DNA of 20,000 bases, from NCBI GenBank assembly GCA_004524535.1, contig SDNY01000008.1, positions 6,314 to 26,313 on the forward strand, read 5' to 3'. The DNA comes from Promethearchaeota archaeon (lineage in GTDB: Archaea; Asgardarchaeota; Lokiarchaeia; Sigyniarchaeales; SOKP01). How positions within the stretch are numbered: position 1 is the first letter of the stretch; each line of letters begins with the position of its first letter. The position numbers were made by a program, and so were the translations under genes. The notes under the pieces are model-generated. The model had not been told where the DNA came from, did no database searches, and saw only the letters and a program-made list of their open reading frames with translations. This document shows, piece after piece, positions 8,419 to 18,324 of this stretch.

Positions 8419-8946
8419 TTAATGCTTTAAAAAAATAGTTTTAATAATATATCTTGTTAAACTCTCAAATGCATTTTCAACATTTAGCCCCGTTTTAGAA
8501 GATGTAATCATATAATCGAACAGATTGTATTTTTCTTTATGATATAATATATAATCTTCATCTAAACTTTGTTCCTCAACCAAATCAGCCTTTGTCCCTA
8601 AGAATATTATGGGTAAGTTTGGATCTTTCGATCTACAAATATTTACCCATTGTTCTATATTTTCTAAAGTTATTGCGCGAGTTAAATCAAACATTAGAAG
8701 AGCTCCTTTAGCTCCTATAACATAATTCTCCAATAAAAAGCGAAATCGTTCCTGTCCACCAAAATCCCAGATTTGTAGAATAACATCAAATCCATCAATG
8801 TTTAGTTCTTTTATAGAGAACTGAACTCCTATAGTCATCTTAGTGTCTGCCAGAAACTCTCCCTCAATGTATTTGTGAAGTAGAGTGGTTTTCCCCACAC
8901 CGCCATCACCGCTTGTAAGTATTTTAAGTACGAGAGGTCTACTCAT
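8419..8946 (-). CDS. Ras-superfamily small GTPase (Rab/Rho/Arf-like)
   Basis: G1 'GDGGVGKTT', G2-region 'TKMTIGVQF', G3 'WDFGGQERFR', G4 'LGTKADL', G5-like 'SSKTG'; ATG start. Confidence 0.95.
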   Translation of the reverse strand: MSRPLVLKILTSGDGGVGKTTLLHKYIEGEFLADTKMTIGVQFSIKELNIDGFDVILQIWDFGGQERFRFLLENYVIGAKGALLMFDLTRAITLENIEQWVNICRSKDPNLPIIFLGTKADLVEEQSLDEDYILYHKEKYNLFDYMITSSKTGLNVENAFESLTRYIIKTIFLKH

Positions 8947-9213
8947 TTTTAATTTTTTCTATTCAACTATATTTAATTAAAGACTAAATTATCGCTAAAT
9001 TGATTAAATTAATAATTGGATCTTATTTTAATAATTCTCATTTATAAATTATATTTCTTTAAATAAATTATTGTTTTTTTTCAATCATAATTATTAATAA
9101 AAGTATATAAAAAATTTCATTATAAACTATGAATATTTAATTAAAATTCTCATTATAAAAAGCATAGTTCTAAAAAATATTCAGAAATTTTAACCGAATT
9201 ATGGACACATTAA

Positions 9214-9669
9214 TTAAACTCTTTCAATACAGAGATATTTCTTTTGCCTTAAAAAAATAACATTAACATTTGAATTTTTGGCTTTTTTACGTAATTCTGA
9301 ATCATTAGTGGCTAGAAAAACATGACTATATTCTTTTTTTAATCTAATACACCATTTTAATAGAAATTCATCTGTGGTTTCCTTATCATTCTTAATCTCG
9401 TCAATGAAATAAATAGGATATACTTTTTCGTTTTTTTCTAAATAATTCATTCCGCCTTTTAACTGTCGATTAAATTTTCTAGCTTTTGTTTCTCTGATTA
9501 TCTTTGCGTTTAATTCGTCTAAAATTTGTTTGAATACATAAAATCTCGTTTTTCCCTCTAATTTCAAATAAATATCATTTAAATAATCAATTTTAAATTG
9601 GAAAGGTAGGAGTATAAAATTAGAGTCGATTATGATTATATTAATATTTTTCAAGTTCTTGGAATTCAA
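9214..9669 (-). CDS. PIN-domain nuclease-like protein (Fcf1/VapC9-type)
   Basis: 'NIIIIDSNFILLPFQFKIDYLNDI', 'FYVFKQILDELNA', 'TTDEFLLKWC', 'HVFLATNDSELRKKAKNSNVNVIFLRQKKYL' match the acidic PIN signature. TTG start overlaps the upstream GTPase stop (TTGA). Confidence 0.8.
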   Translation of the reverse strand: MNSKNLKNINIIIIDSNFILLPFQFKIDYLNDIYLKLEGKTRFYVFKQILDELNAKIIRETKARKFNRQLKGGMNYLEKNEKVYPIYFIDEIKNDKETTDEFLLKWCIRLKKEYSHVFLATNDSELRKKAKNSNVNVIFLRQKKYLCIERV

Positions 9670-10187
9670 TATGTTTGTCGGTCTAAGATCGTTCTTGTTA
9701 TTAATTCAAAAGATTCAAAAACATTTTCACCTGATTTTGAAGAAATTTTCAAGTAATCAAAGAGATTAAATTTTTCTTTAAATTGTAACGCATAATCATC
9801 ATCAACCATTACGTCATTTGCAAGGTCGAGTTTTGTTCCTAAAAAAAGAATCGGTAGGTTACTGTCACTTCTACGTACAATATTAACCCATTGTTGTAAG
9901 TTCTCTAACGTCATAGGTCGTGTTAGATCAAACATTAATAAGGCACCTTTTGCTCCTAAAACATAACTTTCTAATAAGAAGCGGAACCTTTCTTGCCCCC
10001 CAAAGTCCCATAATTGAAGAGTGCATTGTTTTCCATCAACTTCGATTTCTTTTAAGAAAAACTCGACACCTATAGTCATTTTCGTTTCTGCTGAGAATTG
10101 GCCTTCCACATACCTATGAAGCAAAGTTGTCTTCCCAACACCGCCTTCACCTGCTGTTAGAATCTTTAAAATAAACTTTTTGGGCAA
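9666..10187 (-). CDS. Ras-superfamily small GTPase, paralog of 8419-8946
   Basis: G1 'GEGGVGKTT', 'TKMTIGVEF', 'WDFGGQERFR', 'LGTKLDL', 'SSKSG'; start codon is TTG. Confidence 0.95.
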   Translation of the reverse strand: MPKKFILKILTAGEGGVGKTTLLHRYVEGQFSAETKMTIGVEFFLKEIEVDGKQCTLQLWDFGGQERFRFLLESYVLGAKGALLMFDLTRPMTLENLQQWVNIVRRSDSNLPILFLGTKLDLANDVMVDDDYALQFKEKFNLFDYLKISSKSGENVFESFELITRTILDRQTY

Positions 10188-13161: not shown

Positions 13162-13737
13162 CTATAAATTCTGAAATCGCTCCCTTTCTTTCCGTTCTTT
13201 CACAGAAATTTCCCTTTTACTAAGTTTTTCATATTTAATTAATGCATCCTCAATAGCCTTTACTTCTGCTCTTGTTTCAATATTAAATTCTTTAAGATTT
13301 TCGAGAATTTCTTTATCTCCTAAACCTTTATGATACAATTCTTTAAATTTCTCAATAGTATTCTTATGATAAAAAATATAACATCTATTAAAAAATAAAA
13401 TTAGCCAAGTTTTTTCCTTCTTTTTAGTCTGTTTTTGCGACAATTCAAACATTTTGTCTTGGACAGATCGCAAAGAACGACCAAGTTTTTTCGCAATAGT
13501 TTTATCTTCGACCCTGTAATACTTCTTCATAAATCTTTTTAATTTTTTCGATTTAAAAAATCTCCATATATACGATAAAATAAGCAACGCCATAGCAATA
13601 ATTGTTACGACAATTGCGGGCGTAAGATTTTCTGCGATGACCCAGCCAGCATAAGCAATTATAATGATAATTAAAATCAGGAATATGAACCATTTTCTTC
13701 CAATTGATTTGAAAAATATTCTTATTTTACTAGGCAT
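13162..13737 (-). CDS. Membrane protein with N-terminal two-TM hairpin and cytoplasmic HTH/SANT-like region (hypothetical)
   Basis: 'WFIFLILIIIIIAYAGWVIA' and 'AIVVTIIAMALLILSYIW' TM segments, then 'YYRVEDKTIAKKLGRSLRSVQDKMFEL' HTH-like pattern; ATG start. Confidence 0.55.
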   Translation of the reverse strand: MPSKIRIFFKSIGRKWFIFLILIIIIIAYAGWVIAENLTPAIVVTIIAMALLILSYIWRFFKSKKLKRFMKKYYRVEDKTIAKKLGRSLRSVQDKMFELSQKQTKKKEKTWLILFFNRCYIFYHKNTIEKFKELYHKGLGDKEILENLKEFNIETRAEVKAIEDALIKYEKLSKREISVKERKERERFQNL

Positions 13738-13800: not shown

Positions 13801-13951
13801 TTCCGGGTTCGGATGGGACCGGGTATTTTCCAAGATTCCCATGACCGTAAACGAATCTTTGCTTGCGGCGCGAAGCGCGCAATCAATTTACAGTTTGACA
13901 GTTCCCACAGATCGCAACTGCAGTACTATTGTCAACGAAATCAAGTTTAAC
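13801..13951 (-). rRNA. Circularly permuted 5S rRNA gene: 3' half (13951-13887), hairpin linker (13886-13852), 5' half (13851-13801)
   Basis: Minus strand reads GUUAAACUUGAUUUCGUUGACAAUAGUACUGCAGUUGCGAUCUGUGGGAACUGUCAAACUGUAAA, then linker, then UUUACGGUCAUGGGAAUCUUGGAAAAUACCCGGUCCCAUCCGAACCCGGAA. Re-ordered it is a ~116-nt archaeal 5S. Helix I UUUACGG/CUGUAAA (7 bp), helix III CCGG/CCGG, helix IV CUGCAG/CUGUGG, helix V UUGACA/UGUCAA. Confidence 0.88.
13863..13882 (-). other. Linker hairpin joining the natural 3' and 5' ends of the 5S rRNA
   Basis: UUGCGCGC-UUC-GCGC(C)GCAA: 8 bp with one bulged C, in an otherwise AT-rich region. Confidence 0.75.
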
Positions 13952-14103
13952 TTCCGGCGCGTGCCTAATTGCCACCAACTTTTATGGCTGTATCCGTAAT
14001 ATAGCAGCATTTTACTATTTCATAATAAATGCTTGCTTATATGATTTAGACTAAAAATGGTAATAAAGGTTAATAATTAAATTTTTTCAAAAAAAGATCA
14101 AAC

Positions 14104-16254
14104 TTAAAAGGAATCGTTTCGTGAGTGTAATAATTTATACTTATAATTCTTATACCCTTTGTAGGTTATAAAAATCGAAATCCCTGTTATACTTATAATA
14201 GCTATTGACATTGTAATAAGGATATAATCCATCATTGGCGTGGGTATTGTAAATTCAAAGCTATCATCATCTAAGATATGATAATTGTCAGCCCAATCTC
14301 TTGCTACTATTAAAAATGAGTATTTACCCGGATCTAAATTATGAATCGTGTGTTTAAACAAATTATCTTCATCACCCCTAAAGCTATTTAACATTCTGTA
14401 ATATGAATATTCATCAAAATCATCGTCATCTTCAGATTGTAATAAAAATACGCTTTCAAGACCCGATTGTAAGTCATATGCGTTGACCTCAAAACAAACA
14501 TCATCATAAACCGTAGGTTCATCAGGACTACAATCTTCATCGCTAATTTCTGGTACTAAATTGTCCGGAAGTGTTGAAAAATTAAAGTACGAGGGAATTA
14601 AATTATGCCCTGTTATTGTCACATTATATTTTTCACCCGCTTGAGCGGGAAGGCGAAAATTGACTTTTCCATTAATATCAGCGTATGCTGTATAATATTT
14701 TCCATCTTCAGTTCTCAGATGTACTCGTGCGTAAGGAACCGCAATACCGTTATCATTCTTAATTACTGTTGAAACCATTTGTGCCTCGAAAAAATTTCCT
14801 TTAAAGGGATTTGATGCATTTATTGGAACACCAGTATAAATATCAACTTCTGGATCTCCTAAAAGACAATAAGTTAAAACATTCTTACGCTGCCATTCTT
14901 CGTTCATTGTTGCTTCACCTCTTTCAAAATAATCACTATTCATATATGCAACTTTCGAGTCATATAACGCTCTCCCTTGTTGGAATTTTTTATTTTGAAA
15001 AAATTCCTCCCAAAATAACTTGGCATTTCCACGATTCAATTTTTCAAGATAAGTATCATCATCATAATAAAATGTTATTCTTAGAGCACCTACTACTCCT
15101 ATAGCTCCCGCATTAGATACATTTATTAAGATTTCAGCTAAATTGTTGTCATTTTTGTCATATGATGCTGTTTCACAAGCATCAAGATAAACTAAAGAAG
15201 GCATATTAATATTACCACAATTCTCAGCATCATTAGTATCATACATTGTAACTTTTGTTGGAGAAAGCCTACTATAAACATCATAATTGTCACCATGCCC
15301 AGCCATTATAACTGTCGAATATCCAGCAGTCATGTTTTGACTTACCTTTGCTTGAGTTAGATCTTCAAAAGGTTCAATAGGTATAAATTTAGAAGGTTCT
15401 GAAGGATAATATTTACCAGTATAATCACATAGATGTGTAAAATTCATGAAAAAGTGTGTATATTGTTGCCAAATGTATTGAGTAAGGCGACCTTCATCTT
15501 CATAATCATTTAAATTTGTAGGAGAGGGATCTGAGATTCCACCTGCTAAAAGCATCCTATTCATCCATTCACCAATAAAAGGATCTGTTTCATATTTTAA
15601 TGTTTTATTAACCATCAGTTCAAGTTCATAAGCATCATTTGCGGGTAATCGCCCCACATAAACTTCTGGTGTCCAATCAATCTCGTCTATTCCCCCCGTA
15701 TAAATTGGTGATTCGCCCCATTTTCCATTATTATTATTATCCCAGCTGCCGGTTAAATCTGCGTAATAAAAATCAGTTGGTTTATTATCTGGTTCACCGC
15801 TAGGATCAGGATTGTATACATATCTAATAGGAATTAAATCATCATTCGAATCGTCTTTTATATCACCACATAAAAGAACCCATCGAATATTATCTCTCTC
15901 ATAATAATATTTTATCTTATTTCGAATCTCTTCAGCATTGCTGCTAACATTTAAAATAACTGTTTTTACACCTTTTTCATTTTTCCATTCCATTAGGGGC
16001 TTTACAGCTTCATAAAAATCAGGTTTACCTTCAGGCACAATAATAAGCATTTCGATTTTAGGATTGTACCAATTATAGTTTAGAGAATAGTAATCTATTT
16101 GTGGTAATTCAGACAAATCTATGTCTGGAACATCATCAGCAACTACATTGGTAGGAGTTAAATTTGTATCTCCAAATATGTAGTAATTAATTCCTGAAAA
16201 TGGGATTAAAGTTAAAATAATGATAGACAAAAACGCTGTCTTTTTAGATATCAT
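14104..16254 (-). CDS. Secreted/membrane-anchored gingipain-like C25 family cysteine peptidase
   Basis: N-terminal signal/TM; 'MLIIVPEGKPDFYEAVKPLMEWKNEKG', 'WVLLCGDI', 'PEVYVGRLPA', catalytic-type 'VIMAGHGD' and 'LVYLDACET', 'YCLLGDPEVDIYT'; Ig-like tail and C-terminal TM. Confidence 0.88.
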   Translation of the reverse strand: MISKKTAFLSIIILTLIPFSGINYYIFGDTNLTPTNVVADDVPDIDLSELPQIDYYSLNYNWYNPKIEMLIIVPEGKPDFYEAVKPLMEWKNEKGVKTVILNVSSNAEEIRNKIKYYYERDNIRWVLLCGDIKDDSNDDLIPIRYVYNPDPSGEPDNKPTDFYYADLTGSWDNNNNGKWGESPIYTGGIDEIDWTPEVYVGRLPANDAYELELMVNKTLKYETDPFIGEWMNRMLLAGGISDPSPTNLNDYEDEGRLTQYIWQQYTHFFMNFTHLCDYTGKYYPSEPSKFIPIEPFEDLTQAKVSQNMTAGYSTVIMAGHGDNYDVYSRLSPTKVTMYDTNDAENCGNINMPSLVYLDACETASYDKNDNNLAEILINVSNAGAIGVVGALRITFYYDDDTYLEKLNRGNAKLFWEEFFQNKKFQQGRALYDSKVAYMNSDYFERGEATMNEEWQRKNVLTYCLLGDPEVDIYTGVPINASNPFKGNFFEAQMVSTVIKNDNGIAVPYARVHLRTEDGKYYTAYADINGKVNFRLPAQAGEKYNVTITGHNLIPSYFNFSTLPDNLVPEISDEDCSPDEPTVYDDVCFEVNAYDLQSGLESVFLLQSEDDDDFDEYSYYRMLNSFRGDEDNLFKHTIHNLDPGKYSFLIVARDWADNYHILDDDSFEFTIPTPMMDYILITMSIAIISITGISIFITYKGYKNYKYKLLHSRNDSF

Positions 16255-16728: not shown

Positions 16729-18324
16729 ATGGCAAATGAATTAGAGGATGTAAGTGGCATTGGAAAGGCAACAGCTGAAAGATTAAAAGCGGCAGGGATT
16801 GATTCAGTTCAAAAATTAGCTACTGTAAAACTTGAAGATTTATTAGGATTAAAAATTAAAGGTGTTGGAACAGCCACTGCAAAAAAATATATAGAGAACG
16901 CTAGAAGTATGTTTGAAAAAATGACTTCTAAAGAAAAGGTTACAACTCCATCTAAAGTAGTTAAAGAAAAAGAAGTTAAAAAAGAGAAGAAAATCCCAGA
17001 AAAAGCTAAAGTAAAGGAAAAAAAAGCAAAAGCAATAGAAGAAAAAGGATTGGATGTAAAGAAGGAATTAAGACAACAAGCTGAATGCAACATTGGTTTA
17101 GTTGGTCATGTAGACCACGGAAAAACAACGCTAGTTAAGGCTATGACTGGAGATTGGACAGACAGACATTCTGAAGAACAAGAGCGTGGTATATCTATTA
17201 AATTAGGATATTCTAACGCAACAATTCTCTACTGTCCAACATGCGATATTTATGTAACGGCACATATGGCTGAATTGGAAAGAAAAAAAGGTCAACCCCG
17301 ATATACTTGTTCAAAATGCAAAGGTAAATTAATTTTTAAGCGTAATATTTCTTTTGTGGACGCACCTGGACATGAAATACTAATGGCAACCATGCTTAGT
17401 GGAGCCTCTCTAATGGACGGAGCTTGCCTATTAATTGCTGCGGATGAACCATGTCCACAACCTCAAACAAGAGAACACTTAGCTGCTTTAAACATTGCAG
17501 GGATTAAGAACATCATTGTTGTACAGAACAAGATAGATGCCGTTTCAAAAGAGCAAACTTTAGAGAACTACAATCAAATTAAAGATTTTATTAAAGGAAC
17601 TGTTGCTGAAAATGCACCAATAATACCAACCTCATCTGTTTTTAACTCAAACATAGATTTAGTGATTCGCGCTTTTGAAGAAGTAATCCCTTCTCCCAAA
17701 TTGAATGAAGACGAGGAATTTCAGTTTTTAATAGCTCGGTCATTTGATATTAATCGCCCTGGAAGTGAAATTGATGATTTAAAAGGTGGCGTTATTGGTG
17801 GTTCTGTATTAAAAGGAAAAATAAAAATTGGTGATAAAATAGAAATTCGACCTGGCCTTCACATTAAAGATAATTATATGCCATTAAAATCAACTATCAT
17901 TAGTATTAGTCAAGGTAAGAATTTATTGGAGGAAGCTAAACCAGGGGGGCTTATAGGTTTAGGAACAAAATTAGATCCGTCTTTGACTAAGGGAGATTCT
18001 TTAATTGGTCATTTAGTTGGTCGACCAGGAGAGTTACCAGAAATCCTTTCTGAAGTGGAATTAAATGTTAATCTTTTAGATCGAGTGATAGGTTCTGAAA
18101 ATATGATAAAAGTGCACGATCTCAAGCATAATGAAAAATTATTGCTAGTTGTTGGTACAGAAAAAACAGGTGGAATAGTTACAAAAATTTTAAAGAATAC
18201 CGTAATAATTAAATTAAATCCCCCAATTTGTCCTGCGGAAAATTTTATTTACGCTATTTCTCGTATAATTAATCGCCGTTATCGATTAATTGGATATGGA
18301 GTTAATATAAATCACAATAAATAG
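16729..18324 (+). CDS. eif2G: Translation initiation factor aIF2-gamma with N-terminal helix-hairpin-helix domain and charged linker
   Basis: 'NIGLVGHVDHGKTTLVKAMTGDWTDRHSEEQERGISIKLGY', 'CPTCDIY...CSKCKG' Zn knuckle, 'SFVDAPGHEILMATMLSGASLMDGACLLIAADEPCPQPQTREHL', 'VQNKIDAV'. N-term 'LEDVSGIGKATAERLKAAGIDSVQKLATVKLEDLLGLKIKGVGTATAKKYIENARSMFEKM' is HhH. Confidence 0.95.
   Translation: MANELEDVSGIGKATAERLKAAGIDSVQKLATVKLEDLLGLKIKGVGTATAKKYIENARSMFEKMTSKEKVTTPSKVVKEKEVKKEKKIPEKAKVKEKKAKAIEEKGLDVKKELRQQAECNIGLVGHVDHGKTTLVKAMTGDWTDRHSEEQERGISIKLGYSNATILYCPTCDIYVTAHMAELERKKGQPRYTCSKCKGKLIFKRNISFVDAPGHEILMATMLSGASLMDGACLLIAADEPCPQPQTREHLAALNIAGIKNIIVVQNKIDAVSKEQTLENYNQIKDFIKGTVAENAPIIPTSSVFNSNIDLVIRAFEEVIPSPKLNEDEEFQFLIARSFDINRPGSEIDDLKGGVIGGSVLKGKIKIGDKIEIRPGLHIKDNYMPLKSTIISISQGKNLLEEAKPGGLIGLGTKLDPSLTKGDSLIGHLVGRPGELPEILSEVELNVNLLDRVIGSENMIKVHDLKHNEKLLLVVGTEKTGGIVTKILKNTVIIKLNPPICPAENFIYAISRIINRRYRLIGYGVNINHNK

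Follow-up and report, generated by a model that had tools for sequence, protein, structure and literature searches.

The minus strand of the DNA analyzed here, a 20,000-nucleotide window on contig SDNY01000008.1 of a Promethearchaeota archaeon (the whole stretch is called the window below), almost certainly carries a genuine and functional 5S rRNA gene whose two parts are encoded in circularly permuted order, the 3' part ahead of the 5' part, at exactly positions 13801 to 13951. The reading that best explains its features is that the transcript is cut at a bulge-helix-bulge (BHB) motif and ligated, and that the resulting circle is itself the mature 5S rRNA; working from the DNA sequence alone, we give this full reading a probability of roughly 0.6. 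A circularly permuted 5S gene at this place had been proposed in the original prediction, and it is supported by three covariance models, by RNAalifold and by conservation. The BHB, a processing stem, a second breakpoint and the phylogenetic breadth described below are new relative to that proposal.

Read along the minus strand, the gene begins with a 65-nt 3' part (13951-13887, Rfam positions 52-119) that holds the 3' strands of helices III and II, helices V and IV, loop E (AGUACUG) and the 3' strand of helix I. It reads GUUAAAC...AGUACUG...GGGAAC...CUGUAAA directly after GCG CCGG AA, so that the junction runs ...GGCACGCG CCGG AA and then GUUAAACUUGAUUUCGUUGACAAUAGUACUGCAGUUGCGAUCUGUGGGAACUGUCAAACUGUAAA. 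A 35-nt linker that closes helix I (13886-13852, UUGAUUGCGCGCUUCGCGCCGCAAGCAAAGAUUCG) leads into the 51-nt 5' part (13851-13801, Rfam positions 1-51, UUUACGGUCAUGGGAAUCUUGGAAAAUACCCGGUCCCAUCCGAACCCGGAA), which begins UUUACGGUCAU, ends ACCCGGUCCCAUCCGAACCCGGAA, and supplies the 5' strands of helices I and II, helix III and loop C; downstream of 13801 the strand continues GCGCUUUAAC.... A Logan assembly contig from run SRR7615342, an independent assembly, is identical to the window across the locus. Searches with RF00001 in E-value mode and with our model R2 (see below) found no second copy of either half near the locus, no 5' half ahead of the 3' half and no 3' half after the 5' half, in agreement with the earlier view that this is not a tandem array cut by the window.

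The 5S rRNA gene is among the most conserved and most easily annotated of all genes, and 5S is a quality criterion of the minimum information about a metagenome-assembled genome (MIMAG) standard. In the 20-kb window, to which the Rfam search for 5S in the source genome was applied, neither RF00001 nor any other Rfam family matched at its gathering threshold (38 bits for RF00001). As had been anticipated for the native sequence, E-value mode returned only sub-threshold pieces in swapped order: model positions 26-52 at 13825-13800 with 21.5 bits, and a second alignment at 13979-13885 with 15.2 bits, which is nominally full-length although the true match covers only the 3' part, model positions ~49-120. 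The lack of a collinear match at 38 bits or more is the expected outcome, since the gene is permuted. A Njordarchaeota locus (L017) likewise gave swapped and partial RF00001 matches, of 21.1 and 18.5 bits in a 241-nt slice; in a pooled E-value search of five loci the weak partial matches were lost, the filters tightening with more sequence.

We built three covariance models, whose E-values are rough, and used as controls ten canonical 5S genes from plasmid records, delimited by Rfam at 80.8-105.1 bits (a scan of viral contigs for canonical archaeal 5S genes as controls gave 0 matches). Model R1 was built without any Asgard sequence: six Rfam-verified haloarchaeal 5S sequences were permuted in silico at 51|52 and given a UUCG linker, with the Rfam structure transferred. 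It was limited to these six because in a mixed bacterial and archaeal MAFFT alignment (A2/A3) the bacterial rows were off by 2 nt in helix IV. On native Asgard loci R1 gave full-length matches to L028 (80.8 bits, E = 3e-16), L017 (76.3 bits), L012 (36.3 bits) and L026 (34.8 bits), and in the window it matched exactly 13801-13951 on the minus strand, full-length, at a modest 27.9 bits (E = 3e-4). Model R2, made from those four other lineages with the window's own lineage excluded, matched the same interval over its full length at 81.9 bits (E = 2.9e-19), compared to at most 41 bits for the canonical controls. For model R3, five insertion-free Loki-type genes, including that of the window, were re-ordered to canonical order and aligned with structure-naive MAFFT; this model detects all ten of the Rfam-verified controls, full-length and at their Rfam coordinates (31.5-49.9 bits, E = 3e-6 to 2e-11), and gives only two half-matches on the native window. 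By BLAST, the re-ordered Njord sequence aligns with canonical 5S genes in one collinear piece (positions 1-102/104, 72-81% identity), and the re-ordered 116-mer of the window had no match among plasmids, the query being too short and AT-rich. Full-length 5S homology after re-ordering is found with R1, R3 and BLAST alike. Tandem canonical 5S genes are a class of false positives to be expected in every screen for permuted 5S; with R1 they score 121 and 105 bits in L033 and L034. These loci (L033:2-341 and L034:1-323) lie on the haloarchaeal megaplasmids of Natronorubrum bangense and Natrialba magadii, where two canonical 5S genes stand in tandem, 74-83 nt apart.

RNAalifold, run on the structure-naive alignment of the five re-ordered Loki-type genes, returned the canonical Y-shaped three-way junction of 5S rRNA, with helices I, II, III and V/IV and 37 pairs, 17 of which show compensatory changes. 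In an alignment of 11 distinct sequences, 89.9% of cells are standard pairs, compared to 38-48% with slid partners, and 17 of the 33 pairs have double-sided changes; the six- and 11-sequence alignments together give 89.9-91.2% of cells paired and 16-17 of 33 pairs double-changed, with slid controls at 38-51%, all of these counts coming from alignments (A7 and A8) that were fitted to the model structure. In the 11 sequences helix I forms pairs in 100% of its cells, and seven of its nine pairs covary. The motifs of loop C (CCCAUCCGAAC) and loop E (AGUAC...GGGAA) are visible, and helices I-V form the three-way junction. The earlier remark that helix II is weaker, with U.U mismatches, was right: it has two U.U cells in the family register, and the minimum free energy (MFE) fold of the window shows an alternative register of 6 bp, 13839-13834 with 13942-13937.

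A permuted-order pattern scan of GTDB genomes found the gene in two Promethearchaeota metagenome-assembled genomes (MAGs; LW60_4 and TEKIR_6S) that are nearly identical to the window, in an "uncultured archaeon" on a 998-kb contig (L012) and in the Njordarchaeota MAG (L017). L026/L027 and a second Njord-like lineage (L028) came from a scan of metagenomes. Chance matches accounted for 18 bacterial hits and L013 in the first pattern scan, and in the three Acidobacteriaceae matches (L005, L022 and L025) the motif stands by chance upstream of an ordinary 5S gene. Across the Loki-type loci the genes follow one another as Peptidase_C25-like gene, 5S, 180-190-aa protein, cupin, Arf/Rab GTPases. All eight of the further syntenic loci fetched via homologues of the 191-aa neighbor and the GTPases carry the permuted 5S gene; they include two Loki's Castle metagenome contigs (protein LCGC14_0586700) and a 565-kb MAG contig, and their MAG labels, as deposited, are Promethearchaeota, Thorarchaeota and Hermodarchaeota, one locus having a homologue labeled Promethearchaeia. 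The permuted gene is thus present, with conserved synteny, in ~12 lineages, which comprise those of Loki-type MAGs and of the Loki's Castle metagenome as well as two Njord lineages. This was the outcome of the proposed search for the same order in related Asgard genomes, and an Asgard host, also suggested earlier, fits both the closest genomes, which are Promethearchaeota MAGs, and the neighboring genes, which include Arf/Rab-type GTPases. The NCBI taxonomy places Promethearchaeota and Candidatus Njordarchaeota in the kingdom Promethearchaeati (Asgard) as two distinct phyla, and the trait may predate their divergence. Five further Njordarchaeales loci (L047-L051), reached via the UPF0147 neighbor, keep the cluster uL11-L7Ae-S28e-L24e-UPF0147 with no 5S after it, and hence the position of the 5S gene is not conserved within Njordarchaeales. 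When sought via the GTPase neighbor, the cultured Prometheoarchaeum genome was absent among the 120 matches listed.

This distribution bears on the view that the locus is non-functional, whether as an assembly chimera, a decaying pseudogene of a tandem 5S pair or a cut tandem array, and that the real 5S gene lies elsewhere. Tandem canonical 5S genes do exist in some archaeal replicons and score high with the permuted model, as in L033 and L034, and the leader at 14000-13952 resembles a decayed 5' half. We nonetheless regard such an explanation as very improbable and largely refuted already. Closed Heimdallarchaeum genomes have been reported without a detectable canonical 5S gene (PMC8813620). 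The same order recurs in independent assemblies from many samples, neither half is flanked by its missing partner, and the promoter-like motif is conserved, as is the pairing (~90%), with many compensatory changes and with covarying BHB stems.

The BHB is formed by the leader and trailer sequences that flank the gene. On the minus strand, its 5' side (13960-13951) consists of the outer helix strand GCG (13960-13958), the central CCGG (13957-13954) and the bulge AA^G (13953-13951), and its 3' side (13806-13797) consists of the central CCGG (13806-13803), the bulge AA^G (13802-13800) and the outer CGC (13799-13797). The central helix pairs C13957-G13803, C13956-G13804, G13955-C13805 and G13954-C13806, the outer helix pairs G13958-C13799, C13959-G13798 and G13960-C13797, and the bulges are A13953 A13952 G13951 and A13802 A13801 G13800. 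Canonically, the endonuclease cuts each bulge of a BHB after the second base, and the cuts predicted by this rule fall between 13952 and 13951 and between 13801 and 13800. A BHB is defined by a central 4-bp helix flanked by at least one 3-nt bulge (PMC4731332), and our leaders and trailers have a 4-bp central helix, 3-nt bulges on both strands and an outer helix of 3-16 bp.

A single BHB scheme describes 12 of 12 lineages. On the 5' side, the outer helix is followed by C(C/U)GG and by a 3-nt bulge whose third base is the first 5S base; on the 3' side, (C/A)CGG precedes a 3-nt bulge that contributes its first two bases to the end of the 5S part, and the outer helix comes last. The central helix has 4 of 4 bp in the 10 Loki-type rows and is 95.5% paired overall. 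In an ungapped BHB alignment anchored on the predicted cuts only (A9), 90% of cells pair, compared to 9-46% with a slid partner, and all six outer pairs have double-sided changes; in the two Njord lineages the outer stem runs to 16 perfect bp, with a different sequence in each (AACCCGGCACCCCGGA/UCCGGGGUGUCGGGUU and AAUGGCACCUCCUAGG/CCUAGGAGGUGCCAUU). The discarded bulge bases vary, the third base of the 3' bulge being G, A or U and the 5' bulge of L046 being AG^G, whereas the retained bulge bases are conserved across lineages. The pairing and covariation in A9, this difference between discarded and retained bases, and a second breakpoint make it unlikely that the BHB arose by chance.

Joining the cut ends at breakpoint 51|52 gives ...GAACCCGGAA+GUUAAAC, which is the canonical (universal) 5S sequence. 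The second breakpoint, Rfam 34|35, lies inside loop C, 16 nt earlier, and is found in L042 and L044; L043, which ends at a contig edge, shows the same 3' junction. In L042 the flanks are ..CUGCG-CUGG-AA^C-CAUCCGAAC.. with ..AUAC-CCGG-UC^A-CGUG.., and in L044 they are ..ACGCG-CCGG-AC^A-CAUCC.. with ..CCGG-AC^G-CGCGU. Rejoined at 34|35, L042 reads ...ACCCGGUC+CCAUCCGAAC, with a loop C/helix III stretch that equals that of the window base for base, and L044 has a loop C of equal length; both 5S sequences come to a normal 116-117 nt. Canonical bulge cuts thus restore the canonical sequence at both breakpoints.

Farther out, leader and trailer form a processing stem in which GCCAUAAAAGUU (13988-13977, minus strand) pairs with AACUUUUGUGGU (13793-13782, minus strand) over 12 bp, G-U pairs included. 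The stem is present in the MFE folds of all precursors, and its equivalents are ACCACAUAAAUA/UAUUUAUGUGGU in L012, UUAACCACAUU/AAUGUGGUUAA in L026, the perfect 16-bp stems of the Njord loci and, in relatives, stems of the type ACCACAUAAAU.../...AUUUAUGUGGU. We set aside an 8-bp pairing of AAGUUAAA (13953-13946) with UUUAACUU (13796-13789), which is not conserved in other lineages and is taken to be due to chance or specific to this one.

Archaeal RNA polymerase follows a consensus of TFB recognition element (BRE) and TATA box at promoters and an oligo-T rule at terminators. By its resemblance to this consensus, GAAAAAATTTAATTA at 14088-14074 on the minus strand is a putative BRE/TATA promoter, from which transcription would be predicted to start at ~14050. 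Most Loki-type loci conserve the motif GAAAAA(A/G)TTTAATTA at a distance of 129-148 nt upstream of the 5' cut, and the Njord loci have AAAA(C/A)TTTATAAA at -68/-71. The predicted discarded 5' leader would then span 14050-13952, its first coordinate following from the putative start; it contains conserved blocks among the Loki-type lineages. The 3' trailer (13800-13756, minus strand) comprises the 3' strand of the stem and then a T-rich stretch at 13770-13756 that is a likely terminator, and T-rich stretches follow the stem in all lineages. With one promoter-like motif and a downstream oligo-T, the locus has the layout of a single transcription unit, the 3' part upstream of the 5' part on one strand.

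The motif CCGGAAG stands as a direct repeat at both ends of the permuted gene, and the leader at 14000-13952 resembles a decayed 5S 5' part (AUUACGG....CCGGAA), to the extent that R3 aligns it to the 5' part of the model. Because of this repeat and this resemblance (AUUACGG...CCGGAAG, 14000-13951), the gene may have originated from a tandem duplication whose outer halves were later lost. Leaders of ~100 nt (window 13952-14050, L026, L042, L044 and L046) share blocks (CATATAAGnAnGnATTT) and a small hairpin, GUAGC-nnUUC-GCUAC, directly 5' of the BHB. After excision, the two flanks of the 5S could be ligated to each other and form an RNA of their own, by analogy with 16S and 23S processing.

From these features we infer a course of transcription, EndA cleavage, RtcB ligation and a circular mature form, as follows. 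A precursor of ~290 nt would be transcribed from the BRE/TATA-like promoter near 14088-14074, with the gene order Rfam 52-119, helix-I cap, Rfam 1-51. Its leader and trailer would pair into the processing stem topped by the BHB (4-bp CCGG/CCGG, two 3-nt bulges AA^G), where the tRNA-splicing endonuclease EndA would cut each bulge after the second base. RtcB ligase would then join ...CCGGAA(13801) to G(13951)UUAAAC..., recreating the loop C/helix III sequence and releasing a 151-nt covalently closed circle, which would itself be the mature 5S rRNA. Excision at the BHB with ligation is the firmer part of this scheme and, judged from the sequence, probable.

A quite improbable alternative dispenses with ligation: the precursor would be trimmed at the BHB or otherwise and would function as a permuted linear 5S, its chain broken in helix III/loop C and its helix I a hairpin, as in brown-algal mitochondria, whose permuted 5S molecules do function as linear permuted molecules (PMC4267664). 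Such a break would sit in the most conserved, protein-binding part of 5S, and archaeal EndA products are normally ligated by RtcB (PMC4731332). Moreover, at two different breakpoints the BHB cuts give back the conserved 5S sequence with single-nucleotide accuracy, and such precision counts only for ends that are joined or exactly held together, which disfavors an unligated product.

If a circle is made, it might still be re-opened in the helix-I cap to give a normal linear 5S with conventional ends, as happens with permuted tRNA genes. Helix I is capped by a tetraloop in many lineages: UUCG in L012, L026, L040/41 and L044, UUUG in L045 and L043, UUAG in L042 and UACG in L052. The Njord lineages have a 17-20-nt hairpin cap, and the window's lineage and L046 have one of 35-38 nt; in the window the 35-nt linker folds as a hairpin, UUGCGCG-CUUCG-CGC(C)GCAA, inside an asymmetric internal loop. 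These longer linkers of 17-38 nt, variable in sequence and length, fit a spacer that is removed, permuted tRNAs take the re-opening route (PMC10085705), and archaeal 16S/23S circles were classically thought to be re-linearized (PMC12918454). On the other hand, in seven lineages a bare 4-nt tetraloop sits straight on a 7-bp helix I, leaving nothing to excise and no recognizable processing signal; the longer linkers extend helix I in their folds and show compensatory changes (Njord CCCGC/GCGGG versus CCUCGC/GCGAGG); and inspection of the linker found no second BHB. We consider re-opening unlikely. The retained circle is preferred as the mature form because the bare tetraloop leaves nothing to excise and because the SRP (signal recognition particle) RNA of Thermoproteus is a proven case of a BHB-processed permuted RNA that works as a circle (PMC4731332).

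Several observations weigh against the circular reading or its supports. The R1 score in the window is not decisive alone, since half-matches to ordinary 5S reach 25-58 bits, and with filters off R1 did not recover the full-length window match, probably owing to the 35-nt insertion where the model has a 4-nt loop. The fitting of A7 and A8 to the model structure biases the pairing counts; the RNAalifold result is free of that bias. The central helix of the two Njord lineages has 3 bp and one G.A mismatch, and the BHB-proximal outer helix of the window's lineage is only 3 bp long. An inner helix h' past the second bulge was not found by inspection, which makes the motif a relaxed BHB and not a strict hBHBh'. 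Finally, the 35-nt linker of the window's lineage could be a spacer that is removed, and not a cap that stays in the RNA.

The closest known system is the SRP RNA of Thermoproteus (Plagens et al. 2015, eLife; PMC4731332), also an archaeal noncoding RNA gene with its 3' part before its 5' part. There, the tRNA-splicing endonuclease acts on a BHB of leader and trailer, a conserved functional loop is restored when the ends are ligated, and the RNA works as a circle, as is predicted here; searches with canonical models missed that gene too, as RF00001 does the present one. The SRP RNA case concerns a few Thermoproteus species (TACK) and is experimentally shown, whereas the 5S rRNA case, known from sequence, extends over Loki-type and Njord Asgard lineages and has two breakpoints. 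Permuted tRNA genes occur in Cyanidioschyzon merolae and Thermofilum pendens. Like the 5S gene, they are permuted at the gene level and resolved via a BHB-made circular RNA (PMC4267664, PMC10085705), but their circles are re-opened to linear tRNAs with normal ends, whereas here the tetraloop-capped helix I argues for a retained circle.

The archaeal 16S and 23S rRNAs pass through an EndA/RtcB circle released from a processing stem that bears a BHB, and circular 23S is a possible mature form in many archaea (PMC7758197, PMC12918454, bioRxiv 10.64898/2026.03.23.713588). Their genes are collinear, so that permutation or circularity is post-transcriptional; in the present case the gene itself is permuted and circularization would be needed for the continuity of 5S. 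A 2026 paper states that archaeal 5S, unlike 16S and 23S, is not processed via excision and circularization (PMC12918454). The mitochondrial permuted 5S (mtPerm-5S) of brown algae and other stramenopiles (Valach et al. 2014, PMC4267664) shares a non-collinear gene and a helix I closed as a hairpin, but is organellar and of independent origin, with termini at the alpha/gamma junction, no BHB, no ligation and a linear permuted product. Our loci have breakpoints in helix III/loop C (the beta domain), BHB flanks and an archaeal context, and the likeness to mtPerm-5S is one of analogy only. Engineered circularly permuted 5S, artificial and tethered to 23S rRNA, has reportedly been placed in Escherichia coli ribosomes (Huang and colleagues, Nat Commun, 2020), and this work is reported to show that a looped helix I and a 5S opened elsewhere are compatible with ribosome function.

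Gene-level circular permutation of 5S has been described so far only in some mitochondria. A 2023 survey of natural RNA permutations has the mitochondrial case as its only 5S entry (PMC10085705), and a literature search on permuted or circular 5S in archaea or Asgard, which left most subscription journals uncovered, so that a prior report is possible, returned only that case (PMC4267664) and the 16S/23S work. A 2022 paper on closed Heimdallarchaeum (Asgard) genomes states that 5S genes "could not be predicted" (PMC8813620). We see an even chance that in much of Asgard, at least in Loki-type Promethearchaeota (including the Loki's Castle lineage) and Njordarchaeota, mature 5S is a closed circle made by the tRNA-splicing machinery from a permuted gene whose age allowed two successive breakpoints, which would explain "missing" 5S annotations. 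If so, the undetected 5S genes of Asgard genomes, including those of closed Heimdallarchaeum, would be accounted for; an essential rRNA would join the short list of RNAs that need EndA/RtcB circularization for function; ribosome biogenesis in these archaea would rely on the tRNA-splicing machinery for all three rRNAs; and a circular 5S would be predicted in the ribosome of the closest archaeal relatives of eukaryotes. Annotation pipelines would also gain a ready covariance model, and the gene, with its two breakpoint states, would serve as a clade marker.

Some of the related 5S genes carry insertions. The gene at L012:2332-2482 has a 31-nt insertion in loop C with a second copy of GGAUAAUACCCGGUCCC. 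This insertion may stem from a duplication within the gene or may be a small intron, and inspection by eye gave no convincing BHB around it. Three Loki-type lineages (L026:7782-7930, minus strand; L052:863-1011; L040:1336-1486) have a 27-33-nt insertion after AGUACUGCA, in helix IV/loop D, that is absent in the window and could be an expansion segment or an intron. The Loki's Castle loci L040:1336-1486 and L041:1209-1359 have identical 151-nt permuted 5S genes with different upstream leaders, and could represent two strains or two gene copies; in L040 an inserted gene for a leucine-rich repeat (LRR) protein separates the 5S from the 180-aa gene.

In the window, two synteny anchors, both on the minus strand and outside the RNA, flank the 5S gene: upstream, a 716-aa gene (14104..16254) whose syntenic homologues carry Pfam Peptidase_C25 and, downstream, a gene for a 191-aa conserved hypothetical membrane protein (13162..13737). 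At 8419-10187 on the minus strand, two Arf/Rab-type small GTPase genes surround a PIN-domain gene, with 78-99% amino acid identity across lineages, and this block adjoins the 5S locus throughout the Loki-type clade. On the Njord contig L017, a C/D-box sRNA-like element (Rfam sR3, 27.8 bits, below threshold) lies beside a tRNA gene (L017:731-785 and 526-599), upstream of the ribosomal-protein cluster. At 16729-18324 on the plus strand, the window encodes an aIF2-gamma homologue with an N-terminal extension of ~110 aa, unusual for archaeal aIF2-gamma, that has helix-hairpin-helix-like repeats and a lysine-rich stretch.

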